The notes below the pieces were generated by a model. It was not told where the DNA came from. It searched no databases and saw nothing but the letters and a program-made list of their open reading frames with translations. A stretch of 64,000 nt of DNA from a virus. Lineage: Duplodnaviria > Heunggongvirae > Uroviricota > Caudoviricetes. Below are positions 13,733 to 52,401 of the stretch, in pieces. Each line of letters opens with the position of its first letter. Within the stretch, counting starts at the first letter, position 1. The stretch is taken from positions 68,002-132,001 of the IMG/VR virus record IMGVR_UViG_3300008108_000037. One strand, 5' to 3'. The translations under genes were made by a program, and so were the position numbers.

Positions 13733-14489
13733 TTATATACTGTCCAGTTTCGTTTGGGTGATGATCGTTAACTAATTCTTCCCAAAATTTTGTATCATAA
13801 TTTTTATATCTGTCAGAATATCTTAAGCATTCATTTGATGTAAACCTCTGAGCGTCGATATTAAATTCATCATCATCTAGCGGAAAGTAAATAATTCTGC
13901 TTGGATGAGTAATTGTTTTAATGACATTTTCTTTCCTTTTTTGCGTGGAATTTACATCTTTAGGATGTATAGGGTTTAAAAACCAATATTTAACTGTCGC
14001 ACCTATTTTATTTTCCAAATAATCAAAAACAGGAAGTACGTTTTTAAATCCAAGAATTAATAATTCAATTCTAAAATCTAAAACGAAATCTACGTATTTT
14101 TTCATTTTTTCTTCATCATAAAATTTTTCACTCCTGAAATAATCAATCTGATGCCAATCAAAATCTATCAATACGTCATTTATTTCAAATATGTCTTTAC
14201 TAGACCACGATTCTCTTACGTGGTTTTCGTTAACAAAAGGTACAGGGAACCTATCTGGGTATGTAAACTCGAAAACCACTAAATCCCCCTTCTTTATTTT
14301 TTCCATCTGCCTGAACAGCTTTACCGTAGATTCAAAATTGGATTGACCACTAAACCCGTTATTTACAAAATTGAATCCAATTTTTTCGGCTAATATTTCT
14401 GGCCAAAATTTCAAGCCGTATTCTTTTTCGTGATGTGGAGAATGAGTCCAACTACATCCGTAAGCCCATAGTGTGTTTTTTGTAATCAT
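13704..14489 (-). CDS. SGNH hydrolase-like protein (divergent paralog)
   Basis: N-terminal TLWAYGCSWTHSP aligns with the FG(D/C)S(F/W)T block of the other six paralogs (Asp replaced by Cys, as in 17095-17754). Confidence 0.35.
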   Translation of the reverse strand: MITKNTLWAYGCSWTHSPHHEKEYGLKFWPEILAEKIGFNFVNNGFSGQSNFESTVKLFRQMEKIKKGDLVVFEFTYPDRFPVPFVNENHVRESWSSKDIFEINDVLIDFDWHQIDYFRSEKFYDEEKMKKYVDFVLDFRIELLILGFKNVLPVFDYLENKIGATVKYWFLNPIHPKDVNSTQKRKENVIKTITHPSRIIYFPLDDDEFNIDAQRFTSNECLRYSDRYKNYDTKFWEELVNDHHPNETGQYIIAENILLSL

Positions 14490-16383
14490 CTAGAATTTCT
14501 ATAGATTTGAACCATAACATTTTACCAAATTTTCCATCGTGTAATGGAGACATATTTAGAAATATCAGGCCTGTTATAAATTTAATCTTATCGAGATCGA
14601 ATCCGTTTTTCCTGATCCATCCCTCATATTCAGATCTAAACTTAATTAGATTCTTTGAGATATGATATTCATATTTAATAGAATAAGATCCTTCAAAGTA
14701 TGTGATATTACTGTCATCTTTCATTAAATTGTATGGGATTATTAATCCGCCATAAAACTTAGAAAGATCGTAATAAATGTCTCCAGATTCTACATTTTCT
14801 CCAAAGCAGTCTCTCCAGTCTATGTAATAGTATTCGCCATCTTCCGATAATATCATATTATCAAAGTGGAGATCACCATGAAAATTAGAATAGAAAGGAT
14901 TCTCGTAAAGACAGTCAAATATTTTTTCATCAGATAATATAAGATCCAAAGATGGTCTTTTAATTTCGTTTATTTCATGATCAGAAACAAAATAACTTTC
15001 TCCATATTTAGCAAGAAATGATTCTAGTCTTTTATGGGTTTTGTCGACATAAAACTTTTTAAGATCTTCTATGTTTGCAGGGATTGTCTCCTTGGTGAGG
15101 AATTCCAGCTTTGTCAAAAACCTACTAAAATCCCCCAGTTCCCCGCGATCGTATAAAGTTTTACCTTCTATCCAATCGTAATAAAGAAAATTCCCAGCAA
15201 CATTGAAATTTGGGGGAACCAAGCCTCTTAAAATTTCTCCTCTAATTTTCCTTCTTTCTAGCAGATCTCTATCTTGTGTAAACTTTAAAAATTTACCCCC
15301 GTCCTTATAGGTTATTTCTCCTATGTCTTTTTTCAAAGATAGCGGTTTATCATTAAAGTACTGTCTAGCTTTATCTAGATCGTCTAGATTTCCGGTATCT
15401 AGCCATTTTAACTTTTTTGCCTTTAGACTTGTATAGACTTGAGGTGATTCAAATGCAGAAACTAATTCACCGCTTTTAATATTTTCTTTAAGCTCTTTCC
15501 AGAAAGTGGAGTAATCTGATATTCCTCCGAAACCAACAAATGCTAGATCGTATCCGTCAGTACTTTTGTTAACGAAAGATGTTATATTTTCTTTATCGTC
15601 CATCTTCACCGTGGAGTATTTTTCTGGATATGATGTTGAATGAACCCCTAACCAGTTACCGTTTATTCCAGGGATCGGAGAATCTATGATACAATCTCCC
15701 ATTATAAAATAAAAAGGTCTTTGAAGATGCTCGGAGCACAACAGAGCGCTTGTACCTGGCCCAGTTTGCGAAGGATCATAATTCTCGACATTTACGAATG
15801 TAAATTTGTGATCTGGATAAACTAGATTACAATACTCTTTGACGGAATCTCCCTTGTATCCAATAGCTATGATAAAGTCATATTCCTTAGGGAATTTTTC
15901 TATTATGTAGGATATGATAGCCCGATTGTTTACCGGCAATAAAGTTTTATTTATGTTGTCTGTTAATTTTTTTAGACGGCTACCTAAGCCTGCACATAAT
16001 ATTAAAACCGCGGGAGTTTTATGCTCGCTTTCGATCTTTCCATCAGGTCTATTTGTATCATCCTCCACTCGTATTACATCGTCGACCTCCGGGGTAGAAA
16101 CTTCTTGCATTATCAGGTCGGTCAAAGCAATTACCCTGTGTTTTTTAGGAGGAATTACGTTATAGTATTGACCTGGGCCGTACACCTCCTTAACAATTTC
16201 ACCTTGATCATTCTCCAGCCAAATTTCTGCTTGTCCCGATATGATATAGTTAGTTTCTTTTTTAAAGTTGTGATACTGTAAAGATGTTTTATATCCCTCG
16301 TTTATATAGATTCTTTTATAACAATAAGAATCATTAAGTTCTATCCATTCTTCTTTACCCCACGGTTTATAAATTGTTTTCAT
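14452..16383 (-). CDS. tri-domain nucleotide-sugar activation enzyme: cupin + sugar-phosphate nucleotidyltransferase + APH/choline-kinase-like kinase
   Basis: N-terminal KPWGKEEW...SLQYHNFKKETNYIISGQA (mannose-6-P isomerase type II cupin); LILCAGLGSRLKKLTDNINKTLLPV (AGGxGTRLxPLT...KPLLPV nucleotidyltransferase signature); C-terminal HGDLHFDNMI and YYIDWRDC (Brenner HGDxxxxN kinase motif and DxD). Confidence 0.55.
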   Translation of the reverse strand: MKTIYKPWGKEEWIELNDSYCYKRIYINEGYKTSLQYHNFKKETNYIISGQAEIWLENDQGEIVKEVYGPGQYYNVIPPKKHRVIALTDLIMQEVSTPEVDDVIRVEDDTNRPDGKIESEHKTPAVLILCAGLGSRLKKLTDNINKTLLPVNNRAIISYIIEKFPKEYDFIIAIGYKGDSVKEYCNLVYPDHKFTFVNVENYDPSQTGPGTSALLCSEHLQRPFYFIMGDCIIDSPIPGINGNWLGVHSTSYPEKYSTVKMDDKENITSFVNKSTDGYDLAFVGFGGISDYSTFWKELKENIKSGELVSAFESPQVYTSLKAKKLKWLDTGNLDDLDKARQYFNDKPLSLKKDIGEITYKDGGKFLKFTQDRDLLERRKIRGEILRGLVPPNFNVAGNFLYYDWIEGKTLYDRGELGDFSRFLTKLEFLTKETIPANIEDLKKFYVDKTHKRLESFLAKYGESYFVSDHEINEIKRPSLDLILSDEKIFDCLYENPFYSNFHGDLHFDNMILSEDGEYYYIDWRDCFGENVESGDIYYDLSKFYGGLIIPYNLMKDDSNITYFEGSYSIKYEYHISKNLIKFRSEYEGWIRKNGFDLDKIKFITGLIFLNMSPLHDGKFGKMLWFKSIEILDDYKKHTMGLRM

Positions 16384-17098
16384 GATATTGATCTTGATTA
16401 TTTCCCCAATCCATCGTTTTTTGGAATATCGTATTTATAGATATCTCTTCTTTATTTAACTGTCTAGAGTTAGCCCTTACAGTAACGACAGATGTTCTTG
16501 GAATTTTTTTAATTTTTATTTCACTTAGTAAAATGTGTTTGGCTAAGTGATGATGCATGGAGCCGTTACATTCGTTTCCGTCTAATCTTTCCGGTATATT
16601 ATCAATTAATTTTTCGATTAGATCATATTTACCAAAGAAAAAAATATCCTGTATGAATAATTCTTCCCCGTTATTTCTAATCTCTTCTAACCCGTATACA
16701 GATCCCTCTCTTAAATCCTCATCCGAATTTATATTCTCAAAATCGAAATTAAAATCAAAATAATTATCAGGTCTTGTTAGCATGATATAATCATATTTTA
16801 TACCGCTTTTTTTGATCATTTTAAGCCCGGATTTCCAGTGGAATATCATCTTTTCTGGATTGGTTAATTCAGAAAACACATCATCTAATATTAAAACATT
16901 TGCGTCTTTAATATGATCTAATATTCTTTTTTCTGTGACTTCCTCGTCGATTATGATGTCTAGTTTTTTATTTTTTTGCTTGGATCTAGACCATGTTGAA
17001 AAATAAACCTCGCAATCAAACTTGCTTAAAAAATTCCAAGAAGTAACAGCAATATCAAATTCCCTATACATCCCATAAACCAAAATTGCAATTTTCAT
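16367..17098 (-). CDS. hypothetical protein, third copy of the MKIAI..SG domain found twice in 17751-19532
   Basis: MKIAILVYGMYREFD...EVYFSTWS parallels MKIAICFSGQIRR...DYFIHTWD and MKIAICLSGQFRT...DFFCHAWN. Confidence 0.3.
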   Translation of the reverse strand: MKIAILVYGMYREFDIAVTSWNFLSKFDCEVYFSTWSRSKQKNKKLDIIIDEEVTEKRILDHIKDANVLILDDVFSELTNPEKMIFHWKSGLKMIKKSGIKYDYIMLTRPDNYFDFNFDFENINSDEDLREGSVYGLEEIRNNGEELFIQDIFFFGKYDLIEKLIDNIPERLDGNECNGSMHHHLAKHILLSEIKIKKIPRTSVVTVRANSRQLNKEEISINTIFQKTMDWGNNQDQYHENNL

Positions 17099-17754
17099 AT
17101 GATTTTTACCTTTGATTTTATTTCATTTTCTATGTATTGGCAAAAATCCCTATGACCCTTGAATGACCAGTGATGGTTTACTATTTCTCCCTTTGTTGCA
17201 TTGACTATTAATTCAAATTTTTCCCAGAGACTTTCTACATCCCAGATATAGCAGAGATTTACTCCTCTATCTTTTAGTAGTCTTTCTCTCAAAAAATTCA
17301 GTCTAAAATCGTGTCTGATAGAATAAGCTTTCTGTGTTGCAAATTCTATTGAAAACATTTTTATGGTCTCTATCTGCTCGTTGGTAAATAATCCAACGGT
17401 TGCATCTTCAAACCATTTTTGTACGTCTTTTTCCCCTCCCCTATAAACTATAGATTTGACTTCCGGTGAATCATTTTCTTTCGGAAAGTCAAATCTGTGT
17501 GACCAGGTTTTACCTATTATTACTATATCGTCCTTAGAAATATCCTCCCAGTTTTTTATTATAGTATCAATAATAGTATCGTTAGACACCCCAGGTAAAC
17601 CTTTATTTTGTAGAGCATAGTTTATTTTTCTGGATAATAATTTATTCCAAGAAAGGTCATCATCTTTTAACCTATATCTTTGATAATATAGATCATGATC
17701 TAATGTGCCGTCTCCGTATGTAAAAGAACATCCAAATGTCCAGATTTTATTCAT
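17095..17754 (-). CDS. SGNH hydrolase-like protein (GCS variant)
   Basis: N-terminal IWTFGCSFTYGDG; paralog family. Confidence 0.4.
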   Translation of the reverse strand: MNKIWTFGCSFTYGDGTLDHDLYYQRYRLKDDDLSWNKLLSRKINYALQNKGLPGVSNDTIIDTIIKNWEDISKDDIVIIGKTWSHRFDFPKENDSPEVKSIVYRGGEKDVQKWFEDATVGLFTNEQIETIKMFSIEFATQKAYSIRHDFRLNFLRERLLKDRGVNLCYIWDVESLWEKFELIVNATKGEIVNHHWSFKGHRDFCQYIENEIKSKVKII

Positions 17755-19532
17755 ATTAATATTTTATCTATGACCTCTGTTTCACCTCCGGGGAACACCG
17801 CTATATCTTCGAACAGAACCTCATTGTCCCCAAGTCCCCCTAATTTTAATTGTTTTTTGAGAGTTATAAAATTCCTAAATTTGCATATCTGAAAATTAAG
17901 AGGGGTAGTTTGATTCTTTACTCCAATCTCTTTTAAATAGTGATAAAAAACTAACTCAGGTATCAGGTGGTTTCTGCTTTCTTCAAACGTTCTAATGTCT
18001 ATACTTGGTAGGTGCCTATAAAAATCGCAAATTTTATCGAACGTTAAAGAATCTGAAAACCAAAACACATCACCAATTGCAAAATGAGGGTAAACATCAA
18101 TTTTTCTATTATGTATAGAAAATATAGTATTTGGTTTAACAGTTGATAAAATTTCGATTAAATCAAAAACCTGTCCCCATGGAACATATTGATCGTACCG
18201 TAATCTGATACAAACATCATATTCGAAATTATTTTCTATCTCGTATTGTCTTTTCAATTCGCACGATCTCATCACTGCATAAAACTGGTTTGCACACCAA
18301 GTAATGGGCGGACCTTCATTTTCTGGATATCTCTCCTCTGCAATGTCAATAACATCCTGGTTTACTCTTTGATTTTTTTCAAAATCCTCAATTAGATATT
18401 TTTTCGGTTTGTATATTTTAATTATTTCATTTAATTTATCATCGTCGTACGGAGTTACTCTATTATTGGCGGTTACATCCAATATTGGTCTGGATTCGCT
18501 TTCAAAATTCCAAGCATGGCAGAAAAAGTCGACAGTGCTATTAGGATCACTTTCAACTTTATTTTTTAGCTTTATTATGTTGTGGTAGCATTTTTCATAA
18601 GTTCTGAATTGACCACTTAAGCAGATAGCAATTTTCATAGTTCTTAATTTTTTTAACACATTGGGTGAAAACCCGGTCTTTTCAAAAATTTCTTTTTTGA
18701 ATTTCAAAAGTAGATTGTATCCGATGTGTTTGACGTTTGATAATTTTTGAAACTCGTGATTATATAATATTCTATTGATTTCAACACACTCCCTAAAATT
18801 ATCCACTGGATGATAACCCAGGGAGAATTCTCTAAAGATTGTCCACTTATACTCCATTTCATTTAGAAACTCTATAGATTCTATATTATTTTCCTTGAGA
18901 TAATCATCAAAAAACACGTGATAAAGATCTTTGCTTTTATCTGTTGTGATAATATAGTTATGAAACAATGAAGCCTTATCCATAACTGAGGAATTTGACA
19001 TAAATACCACATCATGCAGCATTCTGCTTGAAGGATTCTCAAATTCTGTTATTGTGTCGACTAAAAAAATACCATTTTTGATAAAAGAAATGTTGTCGTG
19101 AATTATATTTTTTAATTTAATCGACGGATCATATATGCAATCCATTCTCATTTTTATTACAACGTCGTATTGAAAATTGTTTTCCTCTTCGTATTTCTTT
19201 TTTAAATTAACACTTTCATACCAGCTGTACCACATCGGGGAATTTGATGTCCCCTTTTTTAGAGACAAATCGTAATAGTCCTCGTAAATATCAACCTTAG
19301 TTTTTTTTGGTTTGTATATGTTATTAATTTTTATGTAATCATTTAGTTCTACCTTCTTGATATGGGTATATTCATGTTCGGGTCTTTCGTCCCCAAAAAA
19401 TCTTTTACCGTCATTAATATCCCACGTGTGTATAAAATAGTCGGCCTCACATCCCTCAATAAAATTGAGTATGTTGATGGAAGAATCAACTGCCCTTCTT
19501 ATTTGACCACTAAAGCAAATCGCAATTTTCAT
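17751..19532 (-). CDS. hypothetical protein with internally duplicated ~290-aa domain
   Basis: Two repeats each starting MKIAIC(F/L)SGQ(I/F)R and containing (Y/F)F(I/C)H(T/A)W(D/N); no known family recognised. Confidence 0.3.
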   Translation of the reverse strand: MKIAICFSGQIRRAVDSSINILNFIEGCEADYFIHTWDINDGKRFFGDERPEHEYTHIKKVELNDYIKINNIYKPKKTKVDIYEDYYDLSLKKGTSNSPMWYSWYESVNLKKKYEEENNFQYDVVIKMRMDCIYDPSIKLKNIIHDNISFIKNGIFLVDTITEFENPSSRMLHDVVFMSNSSVMDKASLFHNYIITTDKSKDLYHVFFDDYLKENNIESIEFLNEMEYKWTIFREFSLGYHPVDNFRECVEINRILYNHEFQKLSNVKHIGYNLLLKFKKEIFEKTGFSPNVLKKLRTMKIAICLSGQFRTYEKCYHNIIKLKNKVESDPNSTVDFFCHAWNFESESRPILDVTANNRVTPYDDDKLNEIIKIYKPKKYLIEDFEKNQRVNQDVIDIAEERYPENEGPPITWCANQFYAVMRSCELKRQYEIENNFEYDVCIRLRYDQYVPWGQVFDLIEILSTVKPNTIFSIHNRKIDVYPHFAIGDVFWFSDSLTFDKICDFYRHLPSIDIRTFEESRNHLIPELVFYHYLKEIGVKNQTTPLNFQICKFRNFITLKKQLKLGGLGDNEVLFEDIAVFPGGETEVIDKILI

Positions 19533-20679
19533 ACTCTAATAAATAATCTCCAATGTCTAGATTTCTTATAGAATCCATCATTTTTAAAAAATTGGAAGAT
19601 TTTTTTTCTAAATTCCCATCTTTTTTATTTTCTATCTCGTACATAAATCTATTTCTGTCGCCATCTCCCAATTTGTAGATTTGCTCCATTGCAAGATCCT
19701 TCAGCTTTGGGTGTAAACAAGATATGTGTAAGTAATTGGGGCTATAGACAAAATTATATTCAATTTGTTCACCGGAAAAAAACTCTCTAAAATTCCACAC
19801 ATTACAAACATTCAAAACACTTATTGTCTGGGTTATAGTAATTTGTAATTTTTCTTTTTTCAGTTTTAAAAAATTATCATACACAACTTCCCATTTTGAA
19901 GGATATCTTATATAATCATTCCTATTTCCAACGTCGTCTATAGAAAGCTGTAGTTTTACCTCCCGAAATTCTCTTAACAGCTCTAAAAACCTGTCTGGTA
20001 AATTTGTACAGTTTATGTTATATACCAGCTTTATATTTTTTGATTTGTCTAGAGAAATCAACTTCTCCAAAAAGTAAAAATGCTCCTTTATCAACGTTGG
20101 TTCTCCCCCGTTGATGTAAATTTCCTCCAATTCGCTAGAATGCTTTAATAATTCATCATACCATTCTTTGTTTTTAAACCAATCGCTTTTATAATCTTCA
20201 TAGTTGTAATGATCGTCTCCGAACGTGGACGGAAATCTTTTAACATCTTCTATCCACTTGCTACTTGACATCGGGTTGCATGTTAAACACTTTATGTTAC
20301 AAACATTACCGAGTCTTAATTCGATAAACTTAAGATGTATATTTGGGAGTTTTTCGCTTATACTTATTTTATTGAGATATTTAGCATTTTCTTCATCTCT
20401 TTTACTCTTGAATCCGTTTTCTTCTATCCTGTAACAACCTATACATTCGATAGGTTTCTCATTATTCATCATCTTTCTTCTAATTTCTGTGAAAGAATCA
20501 GAATTCATAATGTCTTCTATGCTATCCTTACCTAGGGTTAATACTCTATTTTTAGTTTTGGAGAAACAAACCCCATTTTCAAAATTAGCAATACAACAAG
20601 GTGACACCAGCCCGTTAGGATGAGTTGCTAAATGCGTAAACGGTAACGAACATATAGTTTTTAAATTTGTGTCCACCAT
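19510..20679 (-). CDS. radical SAM enzyme with N-terminal Cys-rich extension (short subfamily)
   Basis: CSLPFTHLATHPNGLVSPCC and CIGCYRIEE precede LGNVCNIKCLTC (CX3CX2C); IYINGGEPTL (GGEP SAM-binding glycine motif). Confidence 0.6.
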   Translation of the reverse strand: MVDTNLKTICSLPFTHLATHPNGLVSPCCIANFENGVCFSKTKNRVLTLGKDSIEDIMNSDSFTEIRRKMMNNEKPIECIGCYRIEENGFKSKRDEENAKYLNKISISEKLPNIHLKFIELRLGNVCNIKCLTCNPMSSSKWIEDVKRFPSTFGDDHYNYEDYKSDWFKNKEWYDELLKHSSELEEIYINGGEPTLIKEHFYFLEKLISLDKSKNIKLVYNINCTNLPDRFLELLREFREVKLQLSIDDVGNRNDYIRYPSKWEVVYDNFLKLKKEKLQITITQTISVLNVCNVWNFREFFSGEQIEYNFVYSPNYLHISCLHPKLKDLAMEQIYKLGDGDRNRFMYEIENKKDGNLEKKSSNFLKMMDSIRNLDIGDYLLEYENCDLL

Positions 20680-21998
20680 TCTAATAATTTTTTGTTTTGT
20701 CCTAGAATATTCTCAAATGTTAATGATCCATTTAAACCGTCCTTTCTGAACTCTGCTATTCTTATCATGTTTTCTTTCCCTCTCTTTCTGCCCTCTTTAT
20801 AATCTGGATACGATTCTTCGAAAGTTTTTTTGGTTTTTAAATCTTCTAAAGCCTCCACATAAATTTGGGTTTTCGATGTAACCCTTGGCTTAATGTAATC
20901 TAGGGTATCGTCTATAATTTCTTCGAGGATGGACCTAGGTATTGACAATGGAGACATAAGAACAGAGGAATCGAAAGAAAAAGTTGTTTTTATATAGGTT
21001 ACTACATTTAATTCCACTGCACGATCGAATAATTCTTTTATAGACAGTAGGCCTGGAAGAGTTATTGTAAGATCAAAAACCATTCCATGATCGCCGTATA
21101 AATCGTTTAGAAAAAGACCTCCCTTAAAATTATCTAGCCACTTTTCCCACACTATTCCAGTTCTGATAAATTCAACAATTTTTCCAGTTCCATCTATACT
21201 TGCACACAGATTTACCCTTTTAAAATGAGGCAGAAAATCATATAGATTCATTCCTTTATATGATACCCTGCTTAAATTTGTGTTGTATCTTATTATAACA
21301 TTCTTGGATTGATTATTATCAACCAAATACTTCATGATATCCCAATGAATGTCCCACATCAATGGTTCACCACCTACCCAATATATTTCTTCTATTCTAT
21401 TCTCTTTCACTGCTTCCCAAAGTTCGTTTTCAGTAACTTCTTTCTGGAATTTTTTAAATTTTTCTTGATTTTCTTTTTTATAAAATGGCTCGGTTTCTAA
21501 ATTAATGTTGCCCATTATTTTTCTTTCCGCCTCCCACTGTGAACTTAACAAGTCGCCACACATTCTACATTTAAAATTACACAGATTACTTATCCGATAG
21601 TCATATGATATTGGTTTCATGTGAGTGTAACCATCATCTTCCGTTTTTTCGAATATCTCGTCTATTTTGTGGGGAAAAAGTGTATTGGTGAAATAACCTT
21701 TGTATGTGTAAAGATTTAGAATTTGATCGTTACAAACCTGACATTGTGGAATTGACTCTCCGGACATTATTCTTTTTCTAATGTTTTTCATATAATCACT
21801 ATTCCAATGATCCTCCAGCGAAACTGGTTTAAAATGTGAGTTATCGTCAGGATTTTCAGAATCTATGTACTGTTTAATATAGTTTGCCTTTTCCCTACTT
21901 GCACAACATAATCTTCTTTCCCCCTGTGGGGAAAGATATGTGTGTGTCCACGGTGCTGTACAAAAAAATTCATTTCCATCCGAAGGTTTTATTCTCAT
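20661..21998 (-). CDS. radical SAM enzyme with N-terminal Cys-rich extension (short subfamily)
   Basis: FCTAPWTHTYLSPQGERRLCC, CQVCNDQ, then ISNLCNFKCRMC (CX3CX2C), IYWVGGEPLM. Confidence 0.6.
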   Translation of the reverse strand: MRIKPSDGNEFFCTAPWTHTYLSPQGERRLCCASREKANYIKQYIDSENPDDNSHFKPVSLEDHWNSDYMKNIRKRIMSGESIPQCQVCNDQILNLYTYKGYFTNTLFPHKIDEIFEKTEDDGYTHMKPISYDYRISNLCNFKCRMCGDLLSSQWEAERKIMGNINLETEPFYKKENQEKFKKFQKEVTENELWEAVKENRIEEIYWVGGEPLMWDIHWDIMKYLVDNNQSKNVIIRYNTNLSRVSYKGMNLYDFLPHFKRVNLCASIDGTGKIVEFIRTGIVWEKWLDNFKGGLFLNDLYGDHGMVFDLTITLPGLLSIKELFDRAVELNVVTYIKTTFSFDSSVLMSPLSIPRSILEEIIDDTLDYIKPRVTSKTQIYVEALEDLKTKKTFEESYPDYKEGRKRGKENMIRIAEFRKDGLNGSLTFENILGQNKKLLEWWTQI

Positions 21999-22915
21999 AT
22001 TAATCTGCTAGATTTTATTATATTCTGCGTATAGAGATCACCCCTTCCGTTTGAAATCCATTCATACAACAATTCTGCCCATAATTTGTGCGATTTGGGT
22101 GTTGGATGTACACCATATAATCTTTCCTCCAACGGTATCTGTTTTATATAATTTAAAAATGAATTTGATGGCTTGTCTTTCATCAGAAAATTGGATTCTG
22201 GTACATGGTCCCATTTTAATTTACTCATACGGTATAGATCCTCCCCCCAAATACCTTCAACATATTTGAAAGAATCTATCCATTTCATAATATTTAAGTC
22301 TATAAATTTTCTTTCCATTTTATAGATATGATGTTCCTCAGGTAAAGCATTGAACAAATAACATGGAATTCCGTACTTATCGCAAAACGTACGTATTTCA
22401 AAATTGTAGTTTATGAAATCGTACGCTCCTTCATAGTCATTTTGAACAACCGATAAATACCACTTAAAGAATTCCCTCATTCCATATTCCTCTTTATTGA
22501 AATCTCCGTTACTGTTTAGAGTTTTTCGGTATATTTTATTATGAGTATTGAAAAAAAATTCCTTTCTAACTATAGAGGTCCATCCAATGACTACAATGAT
22601 GTCATCTGGAGTTTTATTAGGGACAATGTAGTTTTCAAGTAGCCAGTTTAAAAGTGTTTCAAAAATCCATTTGTTACCTACTGCAGGCTTGGCTAAATTT
22701 ATAACCTCTTTTGCCCCTATTAATTCTTTTAAATATGTTGGCCAAATTCTTTCAATCCTATATTGATCGTTTTTTGCGTCAGTATCTTCTTCTATTATCC
22801 CGTTAAATTTATTTATTTGGTGAGGCTTTGATGGAGCTTCCAAAAACTGTGGGTCCACAATTTCACTACCATATGTAAAGCTATCTCCGCACACAACTAA
22901 TTTCATTTCACTCAT
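21995..22915 (-). CDS. SGNH/GDSL-family hydrolase-like protein
   Basis: N-terminal KLVVCGDSFTYGSE. Confidence 0.5.
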   Translation of the reverse strand: MSEMKLVVCGDSFTYGSEIVDPQFLEAPSKPHQINKFNGIIEEDTDAKNDQYRIERIWPTYLKELIGAKEVINLAKPAVGNKWIFETLLNWLLENYIVPNKTPDDIIVVIGWTSIVRKEFFFNTHNKIYRKTLNSNGDFNKEEYGMREFFKWYLSVVQNDYEGAYDFINYNFEIRTFCDKYGIPCYLFNALPEEHHIYKMERKFIDLNIMKWIDSFKYVEGIWGEDLYRMSKLKWDHVPESNFLMKDKPSNSFLNYIKQIPLEERLYGVHPTPKSHKLWAELLYEWISNGRGDLYTQNIIKSSRLI

Positions 22916-24467
22916 CTTTAATATATTTTAGCATTTCATCCTGGATATCGGGTTCGATGTAATCCTGAGATCCTGGATTGCTATTTTGAGGATCTAATAC
23001 CCATCCCTCTTTTTTTGCGGTTTCTATCACATCGTCGACATATTTATTAGATTTAGCATCGTCACCATCAACCATTCCTATTTCAAGGGGCTCTATTTTT
23101 GTTTCAGGTATCGAATCGAACCATTCTGATAACATCGGGAATGATTCTTTAAAATTCCTATTTCTTCTTATGTCATATTGAATATAAAAAGATTTAAAAT
23201 CTCTTTCTCTAGATTCAATAGATGATGTAAATCTATGCCCAGTTTCAACTTCTCTTATGTAAGCAATCATTCTGATTATTCCATCTCTCTCAATATCTAG
23301 TAAATCAGAAATATTCTTACTTAGCCATCCCTCTATATGATTTGCTCGTTCAATTCTTATGTCTTGCGGTAGTGTAACTATAGACTGAAAGCTTGGAAAC
23401 CTTAATATATTAAAAGAACAAATCGGGAAATGCTTGCCAAATTTTTTCTTCATTTTAATTACCTCATCCATAAATTCAGTAAGACTAAACAGACACAAAG
23501 AATTTATAGTCATCATTACGTTTAGGGATGCCAATTTACCTTCTTCACAAACCCTGTACATATTTTTAAGCCATTTTTCCCAGATTAATCCATATCTGAT
23601 ATACTCAGCTTGCTTCCCTGTTGCTTCGCATGATGTGTAGAGATGAAACGTTTTAAAGCTGTGTGTCGACTTAATAAGTTCTTCCAAGAGTTCGTCTTTC
23701 TGTCCTAGATTGGAGTTAACTGCAAATTCCACACTACAATCCTTATTGGTTTCCCACCATTTCATCAGTTTCCAGAAATCTTGAGACATTGTTGGTTCAC
23801 CTCCTGTTACTCTCAATTCTCTTAAAGAATATTGAAGCTCTCCCTCCCACCATTTCCAAAATGCTTCGATGTATGGATTTCCGATATTTTTTTTACCGTA
23901 TGGGAGAGAGTGCGAACCATCATGCTGGAAAGCAGCTGCACCATCACTTACTAAATTCTGATATGGGCCGAACTTTTTTATATCATTTTGCCAGGTTGTA
24001 GAAAATGAAGAATTGCAGTAAGAGCATGCAAAGTTACAATTGGGATCGAATGCAATTTCTAATGTTTTTAGATCCACGTCTTGCTGCCATCCGAGTTTGT
24101 TCTTGGCATCTTTTAGTTCTTCATCGGTGTAAATAACAGATTTATAAACCCGATCAGAAACTTTGTCGCTTCCCATGTCCTCTATTTTCCAGCAATACTC
24201 GCATTCTTTAGGTCTTTCTCCCTCCAGCATTTGTTTTCTGACCAATTTTTTATAGCTAGTGTTGTGTATTGCTTTATAACTTTGCGCAACTTCTGCGAGG
24301 GGTATTTTATGAGCTGGGGGGTGATGGCAACTAGCTGTAGTTCCGTTTCCTAACCAGATTGTTGCGTTATACCATTTAGCACCACAGAAGGAAGGGGAAA
24401 CAGAGTTTATCGCTCTGTCCCTATATTCTTGGTAGCTCTCCTCTCCTTTTTTTGCAAATATTCCCAT
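22908..24467 (-). CDS. radical SAM enzyme with N-terminal Cys/His-rich extension (long subfamily)
   Basis: SFCGAKWYNATIWLGNGTTASCHHPPAHKIPL, ECEYCWKIED, then FDPNCNFACSYC (CX3CX2C), LRVTGGEPTM. Confidence 0.6.
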   Translation of the reverse strand: MGIFAKKGEESYQEYRDRAINSVSPSFCGAKWYNATIWLGNGTTASCHHPPAHKIPLAEVAQSYKAIHNTSYKKLVRKQMLEGERPKECEYCWKIEDMGSDKVSDRVYKSVIYTDEELKDAKNKLGWQQDVDLKTLEIAFDPNCNFACSYCNSSFSTTWQNDIKKFGPYQNLVSDGAAAFQHDGSHSLPYGKKNIGNPYIEAFWKWWEGELQYSLRELRVTGGEPTMSQDFWKLMKWWETNKDCSVEFAVNSNLGQKDELLEELIKSTHSFKTFHLYTSCEATGKQAEYIRYGLIWEKWLKNMYRVCEEGKLASLNVMMTINSLCLFSLTEFMDEVIKMKKKFGKHFPICSFNILRFPSFQSIVTLPQDIRIERANHIEGWLSKNISDLLDIERDGIIRMIAYIREVETGHRFTSSIESRERDFKSFYIQYDIRRNRNFKESFPMLSEWFDSIPETKIEPLEIGMVDGDDAKSNKYVDDVIETAKKEGWVLDPQNSNPGSQDYIEPDIQDEMLKYIKDE

Positions 24468-24468
24468 G

Positions 24469-25122
24469 TTAAATTATTTTGGCGCTAGGCGCTATTTTAT
24501 TGAATTCGTTGATCGAATGGCTAGAGTATTCTGGATCTTCAAATATAATTCCATGATTTCCGTTCCCACTTTTATCGAATGTTTTAAATTTTGAATTTCT
24601 TTCAAAATCAAAAAACGAGTACAGCTTTTTTGATTTCTCGTCAAAGGAATCGACGATTTCATCGAAAACTGCAATTTTATAAATATCCCCTTTGAACCAG
24701 CATTCATAAGATCCACTGTATGGATTTATAGATCCTATAAAAATATTCTTGTCTGAATAAGATTCAATTGGACCGGTTTCTTTTTCACCTTTTAAAATTC
24801 CATCGATGTATATTTTAACAGAATCTGAAACTGTCACCATGACCTCCATTCTTTTATGTATATCATCAACAGGTATCCAAATATCGTTATATTGATAGGG
24901 TTTAGTGTACCAAGAGAATTTAACACCATTTGGTTTCTGTAAAAATATTCCCATATGGTATCCTATCCTTCCTACAATCAACGACTCATCCTCTGCAAAC
25001 TCAGAGAGTTGAAAATCCCCATAAAGAGAAAAATTCCCCTCCAGATTTTCAAAATTCTTTGTGTTCGTATTATTTTTAGAATTGTTTGGGATGTAATATG
25101 CTTTCTTTTCGAATCTCATCAA
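24469..25122 (-). CDS. LamG/concanavalin-A-like lectin-fold protein
   Basis: IYIDGILKGEK...NIFIGS...WFKGDIYKIAVFDEI matches the LamG F-x-G-x-I-D-E-hydrophobic signature. Confidence 0.4.
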   Translation of the reverse strand: MMRFEKKAYYIPNNSKNNTNTKNFENLEGNFSLYGDFQLSEFAEDESLIVGRIGYHMGIFLQKPNGVKFSWYTKPYQYNDIWIPVDDIHKRMEVMVTVSDSVKIYIDGILKGEKETGPIESYSDKNIFIGSINPYSGSYECWFKGDIYKIAVFDEIVDSFDEKSKKLYSFFDFERNSKFKTFDKSGNGNHGIIFEDPEYSSHSINEFNKIAPSAKII

Positions 25123-26501
25123 ATTATTTTTTTATAAAATTCCTCAAATTCTGGAAAAACCTTCAAAAAATTGGTGCCTCTTCTTTTATCGTGATTGTCT
25201 ACAAAAATTCGGAAATCCCTCCTGTTCTGTAATAAGGTCTCTTCAGGTTCTTCCGTTACCATCCAATCATGAATTCTATTTAACTTATTGATTTCGATGT
25301 CGGTATATCCAAATCCATCAAGACCAACTCTTATTTGTTCGTAGAAGTCCATTAGCTGAGCTTGCTCTTTTACTACTGCAGACCATTCCTTATCTAATAT
25401 TTTCACTGTCTGGTGTGGAGGCCACCTTAAATAGGACGAGTCTAACATAATAGAGGAGCCATAGTATCTGTGAGGGTTGTGATATTCTTCCTTAAGCTTT
25501 ACCACATTTTCTATTAACTTTTCATAATTAGGAACGGAAAGTGCGTTATATGTGGACATTATTATTACGGTCAGAGGCTCAATTTCTTTCAATAGAAAAT
25601 TAACTCTATCCCACCATTGGTTGAAGACCAAACCATGTCTAATGTATTCAGCTTGTTCTCCCCAGGTATCTGCACTGGTAAATAGTATCACCTCGTTTAC
25701 CCTGTTCTCGTCTATCATTCTTTTTAATTTTTCTACCATTAGATTAAAAAGCTTATCTGGTGCTCCTAAATTCGTATTGAGAGAAAAATTTAAATTTCTG
25801 TTTGGGTTTTTTTCATCCAAGATATAATCAAAAACCTTAAAAGTGTCTTTAGACAGAAGAGGTTCCCCTCCCGTTATTCTAAAAGTATGAAGATCTCTGT
25901 ATAAATCAGGCCACCATTTCCAGAAAGCCTCAACGTATGGGTTCTCCTGATTATGCGGTCTTGGGATCATGTTCAGATCCTTCAAATATTCTAAATTGTT
26001 AAATCTAAAGCTGGTAGGATATGGTCCATGCTGCTCTATTTCTTGAACCCATTGGGAAGAGAACGACGGTCCACAATACGAGCATTTAAAATTACAGTGA
26101 TTACTAAAAGCTACCTCAACATACTTAGGATTGTAATTTTCTTTCCACCCTAAATCTTTTATTTCATTAAAATATGGGGCAGACCAGGGTTCAGAAGATT
26201 TATAAATTCTATCGGAAAATGCATTTGATGTATCTTCTATATTCCAGCAATAATCGCATTCGTCTGGTCTTTTACCGTGAAGCATTTTTCTTCTCTGCTG
26301 CTTTTTATAAACTGTATTATGTAGAGCAGATGGGTTTTTTTCTAACTCTGATAGTGGGATATGATGCGTGCCTGGATGGTGACACGAATGTGTTTGTCCC
26401 ATTTGTAAATGAAGTGTTACTTGAGTCCATTTTGCTAAACAAAAGCCACATCCAACATCGTTTAATTTATTTCTAGTTTTGTCGAAAAATTCGTTTAGCA
26501 T
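25119..26501 (-). CDS. radical SAM enzyme with N-terminal Cys/His-rich extension (long subfamily)
   Basis: GCGFCLAKWTQVTLHLQMGQTHSCHHPGTHHIPL, ECDYCWNIED, then FSNHCNFKCSYC (CX3CX2C), FRITGGEPLL; paralog of 22908-24467. Confidence 0.6.
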   Translation of the reverse strand: MLNEFFDKTRNKLNDVGCGFCLAKWTQVTLHLQMGQTHSCHHPGTHHIPLSELEKNPSALHNTVYKKQQRRKMLHGKRPDECDYCWNIEDTSNAFSDRIYKSSEPWSAPYFNEIKDLGWKENYNPKYVEVAFSNHCNFKCSYCGPSFSSQWVQEIEQHGPYPTSFRFNNLEYLKDLNMIPRPHNQENPYVEAFWKWWPDLYRDLHTFRITGGEPLLSKDTFKVFDYILDEKNPNRNLNFSLNTNLGAPDKLFNLMVEKLKRMIDENRVNEVILFTSADTWGEQAEYIRHGLVFNQWWDRVNFLLKEIEPLTVIIMSTYNALSVPNYEKLIENVVKLKEEYHNPHRYYGSSIMLDSSYLRWPPHQTVKILDKEWSAVVKEQAQLMDFYEQIRVGLDGFGYTDIEINKLNRIHDWMVTEEPEETLLQNRRDFRIFVDNHDKRRGTNFLKVFPEFEEFYKKII

Positions 26502-27808
26502 TATAGTAATCTTTTTTTAATTATCGGATTGAGACTCTCCAAACAAATTAGATCGTTTGGTAAATTTCTGTGTTTTGAATTATTTGCAATCATTAAATCG
26601 TGTCTTTCTTTATGATTTACCCATGGATTATCTCCAAATAATCTTATATGTTCATTTATACTCGATATAAATATCTTCGATTCAAAGTCGTCGTTATCTA
26701 AAATAAACTCTGGAAGATGATACGAATTAACAAACGGAACAATGTAATCATAATTTCTCCTGAGAATTGATTCAAAGCTATTTTTTATATTCGCTCCGTC
26801 AAGTAATATACATCCATTCTTGACGTAGAATATTATATTCTTTTTACTATCCTTTAAAATATTTAAAATTATTTGGGATTCTAAATCTTCCGATGATGTG
26901 TCCAAGAAAACATATTCATATTCAAAATGATCAGTAATCATGCTTCTGAGCGTCTCCTTGCTGTTTTTTTCGATCACAAAATATCTAAGATTTTTAAATT
27001 TATTTTTATAAAAGTTTAGCGTAGTTTCCAAAACCCCTCCATAATTTTCTTCAGCTCCATCTACCGAAATAAAAGCACAGACCTCAGTAGAGATGCACGG
27101 TATGTCTTCATATGGTGGATAATGATTGTCTCTAAAATTTACTAGCTGTTTATAAAGAGAATTTGATATGGTTGAAGGAAATTCGCAGTTTGATAACGCA
27201 AGGCCAAAAACAGCTCCCTCTCCTCTTAAATCATCATCAGCCTCCTTCGCTACCTTTTTTCTAAGCATCGAATAAAATTCATAGGTTTCAAACAATTTGT
27301 CTATCTTTTCTTCGTCAATACCCTCGAAATTAAAATACATTAAATCTTCCCATGGAGTAACTGTATTTCTAAATTCAACATTATTTTTTATCAGCTCATC
27401 TTTAAATTTTCCAAGTTTTGGATTCGTTTCTAATAAGGCTTTGAAATGTATGCTTGTAAATCTGTTGTATGAAAATCCTGGATTAAAATTCTTAGAAATA
27501 ATATCATTTATGAATTCTTCAGAATTTATCAATATCAGATCAGAATCCATATAAAGTATTTTATTATACCCCCTTTTTCTTACCTGGTTAATGAATATAA
27601 ATTTGCTATGAAAATCAAAGGTTGTGGAAAAATCGTGCTTTATTGTTTCAACCCCTTCCATGTCTTTGAATTCTGACACATTATCAGTGTAAACAAATAT
27701 TTTAAAAGATCCACTATCAGTGAAATTCTTTATTAAAAATTTGCAGCAGGTATAATAATACTCAGTATTAGAAGCAATTGTCGCTATTGCTATTTTATTT
27801 TCCATCAT
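26501..27808 (-). CDS. putative GT-A fold glycosyltransferase (DxD)
   Basis: N-terminal IAIATIASNTEYY and ILYMDSDLILIN (DxD) resemble GT8/GT77-type nucleotide-diphospho-sugar transferases; weak. Confidence 0.3.
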   Translation of the reverse strand: MMENKIAIATIASNTEYYYTCCKFLIKNFTDSGSFKIFVYTDNVSEFKDMEGVETIKHDFSTTFDFHSKFIFINQVRKRGYNKILYMDSDLILINSEEFINDIISKNFNPGFSYNRFTSIHFKALLETNPKLGKFKDELIKNNVEFRNTVTPWEDLMYFNFEGIDEEKIDKLFETYEFYSMLRKKVAKEADDDLRGEGAVFGLALSNCEFPSTISNSLYKQLVNFRDNHYPPYEDIPCISTEVCAFISVDGAEENYGGVLETTLNFYKNKFKNLRYFVIEKNSKETLRSMITDHFEYEYVFLDTSSEDLESQIILNILKDSKKNIIFYVKNGCILLDGANIKNSFESILRRNYDYIVPFVNSYHLPEFILDNDDFESKIFISSINEHIRLFGDNPWVNHKERHDLMIANNSKHRNLPNDLICLESLNPIIKKRLL

Positions 27809-29251
27809 TTATGCTTTGCAATTAATCAGAAGGGTATTGTTGAATACCTCTTTAGTAGAGACTAACTCGTACTTCATACTGTTGAATCCCTCACTTTTAT
27901 AGTTTATACATTTCCTTTGCATTTCAGTTACGAACCTTTTTTCATTTCTTGCTGTTGTTTCCCCCTTTGCCCACTTATTATTTACTAGCCCTTCGTCAAT
28001 GTGTGGTAAACACTCGAAAGATCCTTCTCTCCTATAAGGAATTGGCATGTCGCTAACCTCTATGGAATCTTCAACGATTTCTAAATTATAAGCCTTAGCT
28101 TTAATTCCACTCATTACGTCTTCGATTTCTCCATTTTCTATCAAATCAAATTTAAAATGCAGAACTGGCTTATGTTTTAAATCGTGAAATTTAGTAACAT
28201 CTCCTGGAATTTTTACTGCCTTATCAAAAATCATTAATTCTGCAATTTCACCTCTAAAAAATAATGGATTTTCCTCGTCGCCGTTATATCCCATGATAGA
28301 TTTTTCTTTATCCCTATACTGAAATAAATCATTATTTATTATTGTAGATTTATTTTCTTTGATTCCTTTTTCGTTAGATCTTGCTAGTTCGTCATTTAGA
28401 AAAAAATTAAAGTGACCACTTGAAGAATCATAAGATGTTGTTACCCAGGACCAAACACCATCATCCCTCTTGATCCAATTATAGATCTGGGATGATGAAA
28501 AATCTGAAATCATGCTAGTAACAGCTCTGGAGTTGTTAAAAGATATGCAGTACGGACTATATGATTGCTTTCGGAAAACCGGAAATTCTATGAATTTTTT
28601 GTCATCCGTTCCTATTAGCCAATCTTTATATTTTTCAGGTTGTTGTTCTGCTTTAAATAGAGCACATACCGTATGATCTGATCCCAGTATTTTGTTTATG
28701 GATTTTATCCATGGGATTTCAACATATGAGTTGTTTCCATTAAATCTTGAAAATTTTCTTTTTTTATATTTTTTATAAATCCTTTTTTCAACATATCCTT
28801 CGAAATAACATCGATAAAAAAGGTCGTCATCTTCCATACCCCAATCCCAATAATCATTAGAATATCCGTTAGTTTTTATAACTTGATCCTTAGTAAATAG
28901 AATTACCCCACCGAAGTATTGTTCATAATTTAGTTTGAAATCGTACTTCGAAAGTTTTGTTGCTATATGAATTGGATATTTTTCCGGATATGAATAGTCA
29001 CAATCATCGGAGAATGGCACCATATCAACGTCATGCCATGCAATATAATCACATCCATCATCGAAGGCAAACTTGGCTGCTATGTTTTTCATTAGTCCCC
29101 TATTAAACAGCTTATTATCCACCTGATGGGCCACATAAAATTTATGATCTATTCCACGATTTTTTAGATACTCCCCCAGGTCTTCAGTTAGCTTCTGTAA
29201 GTGATCGAATCTATTTCTGTAAGGTATGCAAATTCCCAGTTTATGACTCAT
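27809..29251 (-). CDS. GT7-family (beta-1,4-galactosyltransferase-like) glycosyltransferase fused to C-terminal LamG-like domain
   Basis: FNRGLMKNIAA...DYIAWHDVDMVP...YFGGVILFTKDQVIKTNGYSNDYWDWGMEDDDLFYRC is the GT7 core (FNRG, DVD, WGWGxEDDD); C-terminal FFRGEIAELMIFDKAV LamG signature. Confidence 0.55.
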   Translation of the reverse strand: MSHKLGICIPYRNRFDHLQKLTEDLGEYLKNRGIDHKFYVAHQVDNKLFNRGLMKNIAAKFAFDDGCDYIAWHDVDMVPFSDDCDYSYPEKYPIHIATKLSKYDFKLNYEQYFGGVILFTKDQVIKTNGYSNDYWDWGMEDDDLFYRCYFEGYVEKRIYKKYKKRKFSRFNGNNSYVEIPWIKSINKILGSDHTVCALFKAEQQPEKYKDWLIGTDDKKFIEFPVFRKQSYSPYCISFNNSRAVTSMISDFSSSQIYNWIKRDDGVWSWVTTSYDSSSGHFNFFLNDELARSNEKGIKENKSTIINNDLFQYRDKEKSIMGYNGDEENPLFFRGEIAELMIFDKAVKIPGDVTKFHDLKHKPVLHFKFDLIENGEIEDVMSGIKAKAYNLEIVEDSIEVSDMPIPYRREGSFECLPHIDEGLVNNKWAKGETTARNEKRFVTEMQRKCINYKSEGFNSMKYELVSTKEVFNNTLLINCKA

Positions 29252-30654
29252 ATTCCTACGTTAATTTCTGTTATATTTCCCTCTCTTTTTCTTCCGTGAT
29301 CTGTGTACTTTAGATCCGATAATCCGTCTCCAAATAAAAGATTGCTGTTATTTCTTACCTCGTTATAGAATCTTAATTGATTCCATCTAGTTGCTTTATC
29401 CTTCCATCTATTTTCGAAGAAACCATTTTGCTCATGTTTCATGGATTTAAAGATAGAATCCCTTCTGATCGGAAGGTCTATTTTTTTAAACCAAGGACCT
29501 TCCATATCAACAATTTCACATTTGAAAATACTAGCATCGTTTCCGTTTCCTGAAAGATCTACTAACTTATAATTTTCTATGTGCTCTGCATCATAGTGAC
29601 AAAGAATGGATCCGGATTTTTTATATTCCGAAAAGTCGTTTGTTGCTGAAACAGATTTAACTTCATTTTCACTTAAAATTCCTTCTAAGACTACCAAAGA
29701 ATCTATGTACCCCTTGAAAAAATTAGGATCTCCATTTCTTTTAGGATTTCCTGCACCGATAAAGAAATACTTTTCGTCTGAATAATCCTTTAATTCTCCC
29801 TCCCAATTTGTTTTTCCTATATGTTCTCCGTCTTGATAGAAATTTATTTCTCTCAACGATTGATTTAATGTGATACAAATATTTGTTTGATAATTAGTAG
29901 TTATTTCTGTGTTTATGTATGATGCTTTTTCTTCGGAGTTGAATGTAACAAAATTGTATCTCTTGAATGAATTATAGGAAATTGCAGTGTCATACCCCGG
30001 AATGCTAAAAACCGTATAAACATCAAGATCCTTCGTTGAATCATAAACCAATTCATCGGGGAAAAAAGATGCAAATAATGTTAGATCCTTGTCTATGCAA
30101 AAATTATTTTTTGCTCTCACAAAAGAATCCTGTCCGTTAAATTTTAGTGATTTATGGAAATTTCTTGTTTTTTTGATGTAATAAGGCTCTGTGCCTATGC
30201 TCTTGTTTTTGCATCTTAGGAAAAGGTCATCATCTTCAAATCCCCATCCCCAATACTTATTTGAATATCCGTTTATCTTTTTGAAATCTTTAATCGGAAA
30301 CATAGTGACCCCGCCGAAGTATTCGTCGAATGGCTTTGATCTTTCCCCCGAGTCCTCGTCCTCTATTAGAGTTGCAAGATGAACTGGATGATCACAGTAA
30401 GAATAATCAACATCCAATGGCAGCAAATCAACATCATGAAAAACCACATAATCACATCTTAAGTTTCTGGCACACTTAAATCCTATATTTAATAGCATCC
30501 CTCGATTAAATTGCTTACCGTCGTCTTGATTTACGATGATAATTTCATGTGGTATTTTTTCCTCGTTTAGATATTTTACTATCTCCTTGAGAAAAAAATA
30601 AAGATGTTCCCCTCTGTGGCGGAAAGGAACTATGACTCCTAGTTTTTTATCCAT
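29248..30654 (-). CDS. GT7-family (beta4GalT-like) glycosyltransferase fused to C-terminal LamG-like domain
   Basis: FNRGMLLNIGF...DYVVFHDVDLLP...YFGGVTMFPIKDFKKINGYSNKYWGWGFEDDDLFLRC; C-terminal FFKGYIDSLVVLEGILSENEV LamG signature; paralog of 27809-29251. Confidence 0.55.
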   Translation of the reverse strand: MDKKLGVIVPFRHRGEHLYFFLKEIVKYLNEEKIPHEIIIVNQDDGKQFNRGMLLNIGFKCARNLRCDYVVFHDVDLLPLDVDYSYCDHPVHLATLIEDEDSGERSKPFDEYFGGVTMFPIKDFKKINGYSNKYWGWGFEDDDLFLRCKNKSIGTEPYYIKKTRNFHKSLKFNGQDSFVRAKNNFCIDKDLTLFASFFPDELVYDSTKDLDVYTVFSIPGYDTAISYNSFKRYNFVTFNSEEKASYINTEITTNYQTNICITLNQSLREINFYQDGEHIGKTNWEGELKDYSDEKYFFIGAGNPKRNGDPNFFKGYIDSLVVLEGILSENEVKSVSATNDFSEYKKSGSILCHYDAEHIENYKLVDLSGNGNDASIFKCEIVDMEGPWFKKIDLPIRRDSIFKSMKHEQNGFFENRWKDKATRWNQLRFYNEVRNNSNLLFGDGLSDLKYTDHGRKREGNITEINVGI

Positions 30655-37191: not shown

Positions 37192-37206
37192 AAAAATTAA
37201 TTTAAT

Positions 37207-52252: not shown

Positions 52253-52257
52253 CAATT

Positions 52258-52320: not shown

Positions 52321-52401
52321 ATAGGAGGCTCGATACTAACGTAAAACTTGTACACTAACATAATCCTTGTTAGCGTACAAAAAGTTCGTTAGCAGTCAAA
52401 T

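Follow-up and report, generated by a model that had tools for sequence, protein, structure and literature searches.

SPASM and twitch domains are described as 'C-terminal extensions' of radical S-adenosylmethionine (SAM) enzymes, and in the twitch enzyme BtrN the substrate radical is proposed to pass an electron to the auxiliary [4Fe-4S] cluster, which has four Cys ligands, in the course of a two-electron oxidation (PMC9012708). Here we describe a cassette of four radical SAM paralogs that carry a Cys-rich block ahead of the radical SAM core, encoded by a virus of the class Caudoviricetes (IMG/VR record IMGVR_UViG_3300008108_000037, positions 68,002 to 132,001). This whole stretch of 64,000 nucleotides is called the window throughout. 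An initial annotation, made from the sequence alone, had reported four full-length open reading frames (ORFs) of 389, 445, 519, and 460 amino acids (aa), and all of them are present on the minus strand exactly where it placed them. We denote the four genes R0, R1, R2, and R4, and give for each the bit score against the NCBIfam model NF033640 and the motif subgroup, both discussed below.

25119-26501 (-): R0, N_Twi_rSAM paralog of 460 aa, the first radical SAM gene of the cassette; NF033640 331.1 bits; S-C-H-H-P subgroup
22908-24467 (-): R1, N_Twi_rSAM paralog of 519 aa; NF033640 313.2 bits; S-C-H-H-P subgroup
20661-21998 (-): R2, N_Twi_rSAM paralog of 445 aa; NF033640 306.6 bits; C-C subgroup
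19510-20679 (-): R4, N_Twi_rSAM paralog of 389 aa; NF033640 314.9 bits; C-C subgroup; the paralog chosen for structure modelling

Family membership and the N-terminal domain

Judged by their sequences, the four paralogs are clear members of NF033640 ("N_Twi_rSAM, twitch domain-containing radical SAM protein"), an already named family without an assigned function. All four match this model, which has a length of 398 positions, with 306-331 bits against a curated cut-off of 170 bits, and they align with it end to end, from model position 1-4 to 380-398. These scores contradict the initial annotation, which could not place the proteins in a named radical SAM subfamily. With all other NCBIfam models, including MoaA, viperin, SkfB, DynA, and QueE, the four paralogs remain far under each cut-off. 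Three of them reach the gathering score of Pfam Radical_SAM; the 519-aa paralog scores 28.2 against a cut-off of 29.5. In the alignment of the four paralogs, the CX3CX2C motif (C127/C131/C134; residue numbers are those of the 389-aa protein) is invariant, and so is the GGEP element (G191-G192-E193-P194), on which the earlier radical SAM assignment had been made to depend.

The family is large, yet it lacks an assigned function and a solved structure, and the literature searched contains no paper on it, so that membership does not place the paralogs in a well-characterised subfamily with a known role. A profile built from the four paralogs and run against 1.84 billion representatives retrieved 4,043 clusters (50% identity, E <= 1e-30), and at least 557 loci in IMG/VR encode relatives. 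The names of cluster members are uninformative ('organic radical activating enzyme', 'hypothetical', 'MoaA'). A PDB sequence search with two full-length paralogs gave a marginal match to the SkfB core (E 0.0017) as its sole result, and the lack of a solved structure follows from this search. Our literature search found no paper on NF033640 or on an N-terminal twitch or SPASM domain, and nothing relevant that links jumbo phages, radical SAM enzymes, and glycosyltransferases. The closest relative in a cultured phage, and the only close one, is gp349 of Ralstonia phage RsoM2USA (NF033640 316 bits), whose neighbours are all annotated as hypothetical. Matches in KVP40-like Vibrio phages, at 21-25% identity, were set aside as too distant.

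The Cys-rich N-terminal block ahead of CX3CX2C, first noticed in the initial annotation, is confirmed by alignments of the four paralogs, of 66 diverse homologues, and of 495 near-full-length relatives from viral and bacterial loci. Within the block, C10, C29, C79, and C82 are invariant among the four paralogs, and all invariant columns (the four N-terminal Cys, CX3CX2C, and GGEP) persist across the 66 homologues, whose identity falls to ~20%. In the survey of 495 relatives, no sequence lacks C79, C82, or any of the three radical SAM Cys, and P194 of GGEP is present in 484. All seven Cys occur in 434 of these relatives; the remainder are N-terminal gaps, which possibly come from a crude choice of start (the first ATG in the ORF). 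The spacing in this set is C-x17-19-C, x35-63, C-x2-C, x37-69, and then CX3CX2C. On sequence grounds, the conservation of these Cys across thousands of homologues is not attributable to chance.

The motif string first proposed for the block holds for its four conserved Cys and has to be amended elsewhere. Its leading element is a single Cys rather than C-x2-C, which among the four paralogs is found in the 460-aa protein only (CGFC). The 'W' and 'HHP' elements are restricted to one of two motif subgroups, namely S-C-(H/Y)-H-P (with the Ser at position 28), found in 148 sequences including the 460- and 519-aa proteins; the other subgroup, C-C, comprises 318 sequences including the 389- and 445-aa proteins. 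The earlier division into two subfamilies is roughly right, with 33% identity between the 519- and 460-aa paralogs and 29% between the 389- and 445-aa paralogs, the latter value being hardly above that for the 389- and 460-aa pair; in the wider data, however, the four proteins fall into four orthogroups.

Sequence comparison and structure models together identify the N-terminal domain, of ~90 residues, as a twitch (truncated SPASM) domain in a permuted, N-terminal position. Pfam SPASM matches above its gathering score at residues 10-82 of the 389-aa protein and 13-90 of the 445-aa paralog. The twitch domain covers residues 1 to ~95 and is thus N-terminal to the radical SAM core, which supports the earlier remark that its position is opposite to the usual one, given that the domain type is reviewed under 'C-terminal extensions' (PMC9012708). 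The C-terminal region holds no invariant Cys, either in the four paralogs or in the 66-sequence alignment.

A domain profile built from residues 1-100 of 21 sequences was searched against all PDB sequences, and its best match was residues 169-240 of BtrN, which form the twitch domain of that enzyme; the E value of 0.084 is not significant alone. In this alignment all four conserved Cys are placed on four BtrN cysteines. We take C169, C187, C232, and C235 to be the auxiliary-cluster ligands of BtrN. The AlphaFold2 model of the 389-aa protein (pLDDT 90.4, pTM 0.87) has a beta-hairpin between C10 and C29 and helices that lead to C79-x2-C82. When the domain was modelled alone, its six best PDB matches were SPASM/twitch enzymes.

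Because the Cys are in register with those of BtrN and the isolated model matches SPASM/twitch enzymes, C10, C29, C79, and C82 most likely bind a second [4Fe-4S] cluster, with Cys ligands only, rather than zinc. The initial annotation had named both an auxiliary Fe-S cluster and zinc; the Fe-S option is now the best reading, given the SPASM match, the BtrN register, and the domain model, and zinc is disfavoured. Four Cys arranged as C…C…C-x2-C can bind Zn, but a structural zinc ribbon strikes us as extremely improbable here. The Pfam family matched above gathering score is an 'iron-sulfur cluster-binding domain', the Cys coincide with BtrN residues presumed to hold a [4Fe-4S] cluster, no zinc-ribbon protein is among the 14 structural matches of the isolated-domain model, and the NCBI curators name the family as twitch-domain-containing.

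The cassette and its genomic setting

What is new here is a fixed, ordered set of old paralogs that usually lies behind putative or Pfam-supported glycosyltransferase (GT) genes in phage sugar islands and is sometimes fused to GTs. From the IMG/VR scan we examined the best 80 loci, over ~17 kb each, and defined orthogroups by clustering at 40% identity and 75% coverage; the locus counts for orthogroups refer to these 80 viral loci plus the window. At least two family members are carried by 76 of the 80 viral loci; a locus has 5.0 members on average and at most 12. The orthogroup of R0 was found in 56 loci, that of R1 in 49, that of R2 in 46, and that of R4 in 28, and the genes follow the order R0-R1-R2-R4 on one strand, mostly as direct neighbours. 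Identity between paralogs within a locus has a median of 26% and never exceeds 49%. These low values rule out recent tandem amplification, and the four window paralogs are, as far as their sequences tell, anciently diverged.

Upstream of R0, the usual gene in the viral loci encodes a 298-aa protein of a family that lacks annotation but has a DXD-like motif (25 loci); the GT7+LamG family, also present in the window, precedes R0 in 6 viral loci. Other neighbours in the 80 loci include DUF6071 proteins (28 loci), NAD epimerase/dehydratase and UDP-Glc/GDP-Man dehydrogenase (12 each), and carbamoyltransferase, which is considered further below. In the window, the genes between and around the four paralogs are as follows.

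29248-30654 and 27809-29251 (-): two GT7-type (beta-1,4-galactosyltransferase-like) proteins with Laminin_G_3; Pfam Glyco_transf_7N/7C, E 1e-16 to 1e-20
26501-27808 (-): 435-aa protein with no family assigned, directly upstream of R0; no Pfam or PHROG match
24469-25122 (-): 217-aa protein between R0 and R1; weak concanavalin-A-like / Pfam Laminin_G_3 match, E 1e-4, below gathering score
21995-22915 (-): DUF6071 protein of 306 aa between R1 and R2; Pfam DUF6071 E 1.7e-12; N-terminal GDS-type motif (VVCGDSFTYG), SGNH-like
14452-16383 (-): 643-aa protein of the same gene string with cupin, nucleotidyltransferase, and kinase-like domains; Pfam MannoseP_isomer and NTP_transferase at gathering score

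The two GT7 proteins are paralogs with 30% mutual identity, and the 217-aa protein is 30% identical to the C-terminal part of the one at 29248-30654; a homologue of the 217-aa protein lies between R0 and R1 in 5 viral loci. The 435-aa protein keeps its position on identical and related contigs, and its motif YMDSDLILIN makes it a putative DXD-type glycosyltransferase. In the 643-aa protein, NTP_transf_3 and APH matches fall slightly under their gathering scores. Junctions between the cassette genes and those between and around them measure -23 to +1 bases, which suggests that the cassette and its flanking genes may form one translationally coupled operon. Metagenome contigs in ENA and JGI, up to 55 kb long (75 kb on record), contain identical copies of the cassette, and relatives lie on contigs of 320-352 kb. 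Downstream of the cassette, a 593-aa protein (17751-19532, minus strand) has an internal duplication, both copies of which start with MKIAIC(F/L)SGQ. It is paralogous to a 243-aa protein (16367-17098, minus strand); both match phrog_13607, and the 593-aa protein faintly matches DUF7796.

Fusions link the family to GTs directly. Among bona fide members, P0267 is fused to GT2 (301.9 bits) and P0296 to a GT7C/GT2-like domain (307.5 bits). Within a further group, consisting of P0241 (1203 aa), P0242 (950 aa), and P0250 and P0276 (~1100 aa), some proteins hold 2-3 complete N_Twi_rSAM modules per chain and others have two modules joined by TPR repeats. The modules of these metagenomic fusions were confirmed as NF033640 members at ~300 bits each. 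The window itself encodes two further relatives outside the cassette.

1-647 (-): truncated, divergent relative, 215 aa visible; C…CC…C-x4-C ahead of CNLKCPSC; NF033640 53.9 bits, below 170
40517-42700 (+): GT2-radical SAM fusion of 727 aa; Pfam Glycos_transf_2 at residues 6-110 and Radical_SAM at 405-540

The partial ORF at 1-647 had been counted as a fifth member. It is a relative, but its score lies well under the family cut-off and it has C-x4-C instead of C-x2-C. A full-length homologue of this ORF (L088, 345 aa, 36% identity) is likewise below the cut-off, at 71.8 bits. The GT2 fusion carries a C-x16-CC…C-x2-C element before CNMRCTYC; it scores 40.6 bits with NF033640, below the cut-off and with the core matched only, and a GFO/IDH/MocA oxidoreductase and an ATP-grasp protein are encoded downstream of it.

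In reference genomes, relatives occur mainly in Bdellovibrionota and Flavobacteriales. Arrays of 2-8 paralogs are found in Bdellovibrionota and Legionellales loci, where the neighbours are further radical SAM genes, GT2, carbamoyltransferase, epimerase/dehydratase, and GDSL genes. One contig of a Flavobacteriaceae bin (L085, CBFHJJ010000001.1, 248 kb) encodes a methyltransferase, a 285-aa protein, two GT7 proteins, and then radical SAM genes, as in the window; this contig probably stems from a phage and was binned as bacterial.

By its features, the window seems to belong to a very large (jumbo) phage. It has 21 transfer RNA genes on the plus strand (38855-38929 and 52166-61151), mostly in a loose array and covering at least 15 amino acids, of which 20 were confirmed with Rfam. 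A transfer-messenger RNA gene at 36809-37193 (plus strand) matches Rfam RF00023 with 79.5 bits against a gathering score of 47, and ARAGORN gives its tag peptide as DVELSTMTFEDAMSFVGADYAIAA. A collagen-like tail fibre of 1567 aa is encoded at 46154-50857 (plus strand) and contains 280 G-X-Y triplets, many of the GTSGSS type and Ser/Thr-rich; ORFs on other frames inside this gene are probably shadows. G+C content is 45-49% in the tail-fibre gene and low in the first 46 kb, at 28-37%, with ~31-36% in the cassette.

Carbohydrate enzymes dominate bases 1 to ~46,000 and 61186-62274. The latter interval (plus strand) encodes a UDP-galactopyranose mutase (Pfam GLF, E 3e-76), which implies that the phage is able to make UDP-galactofuranose. 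Further sugar-related proteins in the window are GT2_4-like, GT8, and GFO/IDH/MocA proteins, a DegT fragment, a sugar-transfer-type ATP-grasp protein, and PAP2, together with two Methyltransf_24 and several SGNH/DUF6071-like proteins.

Other genes of the window were noted in passing. Small 2-oxoglutarate (2OG)-Fe(II) oxygenase paralogs (2OG-FeII_Oxy_3, a family that we take to be prolyl-4-hydroxylase-like) lie on the minus strand at 1860-2363, 5343-6008, and 5942-6433, and BLAST adds those at 2848-3390 and 4022-4525. They belong to the same minus-strand gene string as the cassette, in the window that also holds the collagen-like fibre gene. Two adjacent minus-strand paralogs (7541-7975 and 7975-8448) are 34% identical; the second has a match to the SET (lysine methyltransferase) domain, which seems unusual for a phage. 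In a 624-aa protein (8613-10487, minus strand), residues ~463-621 match Hint/intein-splicing/AXH modules, and no known N-terminal domain was found.

Possible function and its alternatives

We favour, with somewhat better than even confidence, the reading that the paralogs are twitch-first radical SAM enzymes that tailor sugars within a glycan pathway encoded by the phage. Carbohydrate-active enzymes are encoded nearby in the window, in the 80 viral loci, and in the bacterial loci, and are joined to family modules in the fusion proteins; this association is qualitative. From the observed fold, family membership, cassette, linkage, and fusions, we infer cluster binding, chemistry, sugar substrate, and final acceptor as follows. 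CX3CX2C would bind the [4Fe-4S] cluster that cleaves SAM, with GGEP contacting SAM. Reductive cleavage of SAM by this cluster would give a 5'-deoxyadenosyl radical that abstracts a hydrogen from a substrate C-H bond, here presumably at a sugar carbon. In line with proposals for BtrN and similar enzymes, the N-terminal auxiliary cluster would then handle the second electron, and the outcome could be oxidation, epimerisation, dehydration, or bond formation. Substrates may be nucleotide-sugars or a growing glycan from the surrounding glycosylation island. Since the four ancient orthologues travel together in a fixed order, each would probably perform a different step or act at a different position of its own. 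For the final acceptor we can offer a guess, the collagen-like tail fibre; a glycosylated fibre is attractive in this role because it is rich in Ser/Thr and because prolyl-4-hydroxylase-type oxygenases are encoded in the same window. It is also conceivable, although we put this well short of even, that the cassette, with up to 12 paralogs, works as an assembly line of successive C-H functionalisations on a phage glycan or on the glycosylated collagen-like fibre.

Several observations weigh against sugar tailoring. The assignment of a sugar substrate comes from gene neighbourhood and fusions alone. The commonest neighbour families in the viral loci (c1, c2, c5, c6, and c7) have no Pfam or PHROG match, and it is a reading of motifs that makes them putative glycosyltransferases or methyltransferases. 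The nearest structural neighbours of the core are mixed, including the protein- or peptide-modifying SkfB, anSME, 5wgg, and SuiB as well as BlsE, BtrN, and MoaA, which act on sugars or nucleosides, and therefore the fold does not discriminate between these substrate classes. Finally, eight Flavobacteriales loci (L049, L053, L054, L057, L063, L066, L072, and L077) carry a single-copy homologue, around position 8000, that stands not beside sugar genes but beside an ABC transporter and genes that read as hemE-, hemL-, and hemB-like. This context may reflect local synteny or a different role of that branch. We judged it to be local synteny among close relatives and set aside a heme-related role for the phage cassette.

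The enzymes might instead modify a protein or peptide, by epimerisation, cross-linking, or Ser/Cys oxidation (as in anSME) of the tail fibre or in the making of a product like a ribosomally synthesised and post-translationally modified peptide, with the glycosyltransferases acting on the same protein. The 1567-aa fibre with its Ser/Thr-rich triplets offers a target, the several prolyl-hydroxylase-type oxygenases suggest that protein modification takes place here, and the fusion of some family members to TPR repeats would also fit. We nevertheless consider this rather unlikely, as no RRE/PqqD-like domain was found in any of the four paralogs, and their twitch domain, with one predicted cluster, is not the seven-Cys SPASM domain typical of peptide maturases. 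No Cys-rich small ORF or precursor was noticed, though no systematic search was made, and a 69-aa ORF of the window and the 103-aa c8 family are unlike precursors. The steady partners of the family are nucleotide-sugar enzymes, carbamoyltransferase, and glycosyltransferases, and it is to glycosyltransferases that members are fused. The cassette might also make a small molecule that diffuses, for instance a carbamoylated compound resembling an aminoglycoside or nucleoside, in place of any glycan decoration of the virion or a cell-surface macromolecule. BtrN, BlsE, DesII, and AprD4, which are characterised structural matches with sugar- or nucleoside-like substrates, work in antibiotic pathways; carbamoyltransferase is the annotated neighbour seen most often (27 of the 80 viral loci; 3 of the 140 ORFs around the bacterial arrays); and the bacterial carriers are mostly predatory Bdellovibrionota. 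Such a product appears distinctly unlikely to us, however, because the many glycosyltransferases with lectin-like domains, PAP2, and UDP-galactopyranose mutase, carried by the window and its relatives, are typical for the assembly of polymers or glycoconjugates. Among the Pfam matches obtained for part of the window's ORFs there is no gene for an exporter or for self-resistance, and such antibiotics are not known from phages.

An involvement in hypermodification of phage DNA or nucleotides, with glycosyltransferases that modify DNA bases and radical SAM enzymes that further process the groups so attached, is highly improbable in our view. The genes belong to a large phage, other phages are known to glycosylate their DNA and to use radical SAM chemistry when hypermodifying bases, and there are weak matches to QueE models. 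These matches are far under the cut-offs, however, and no hydroxymethylase, thymidylate-synthase-like protein, or DNA glycosyltransferase was matched in Pfam and PHROG searches of most large ORFs. The Bdellovibrionota and Legionellales arrays, some of them on megabase-scale scaffolds, lie beside GT2, OmpA, and ABC-2 transporter genes, which also argues against a role tied to phage DNA.

The four paralogs are new members of a curated, uncharacterised family, and in this respect the novelty is modest. Our study adds a concrete hypothesis and a defined gene set for enzymologists. The cassette bears on the role of the large 'dark' accessory regions in jumbo phages, and on whether an auxiliary cluster is able to function from the opposite end of the polypeptide. 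If sugar tailoring is correct, a virion or host-surface glycan made by radical chemistry would be relevant to phage-host recognition. If the assembly-line proposal were true, sugars could be multiply oxidised, epimerised, deoxygenated, or cross-linked in a manner without known counterpart, and viruses and predatory bacteria would have, in these proteins, a first functional class of carbohydrate-tailoring radical SAM enzymes of their own.

Comparison with described enzymes

The closest described group is NF033640 itself, which has the same architecture as the four paralogs, with the twitch domain at the N-terminus and the radical SAM core after it, and no distinguishing difference; what is added here to the knowledge of that family is the phage cassette context. 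SPASM enzymes (anSME, SkfB, the 5wgg sactipeptide maturase, PqqE, and SuiB) possess a seven-Cys motif, whereas the paralogs have four conserved Cys, the second half of the SPASM motif (C-x5-C-x3-C) being absent after C-x2-C; four conserved Cys would provide for one auxiliary cluster only. SPASM peptide maturases also contain an N-terminal, peptide-binding RRE/PqqD-like domain, which Pfam and NCBIfam scans did not find in the paralogs, and in the same scans the paralogs were far under the cut-offs of all maturase models.

BtrN (2-deoxy-scyllo-inosamine dehydrogenase), the archetypal twitch enzyme, resembles the paralogs in having one auxiliary domain and four Cys with a comparable spacing; it superposes on the isolated domain model over 74 residues with 23% identity, and its substrate is carbohydrate-like. 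The twitch domain follows the core in BtrN and precedes it in the paralogs, and BtrN is smaller (~250 aa) than the paralogs (389-519 aa), which have an extra helical C-terminal region. By sequence, the paralogs are not members of the groups of radical SAM enzymes from sugar and nucleoside antibiotic pathways (BlsE, DesII, and AprD4). Those enzymes occur singly in antibiotic clusters, whereas N_Twi_rSAM proteins form ordered arrays of 4-12 paralogs in phages.

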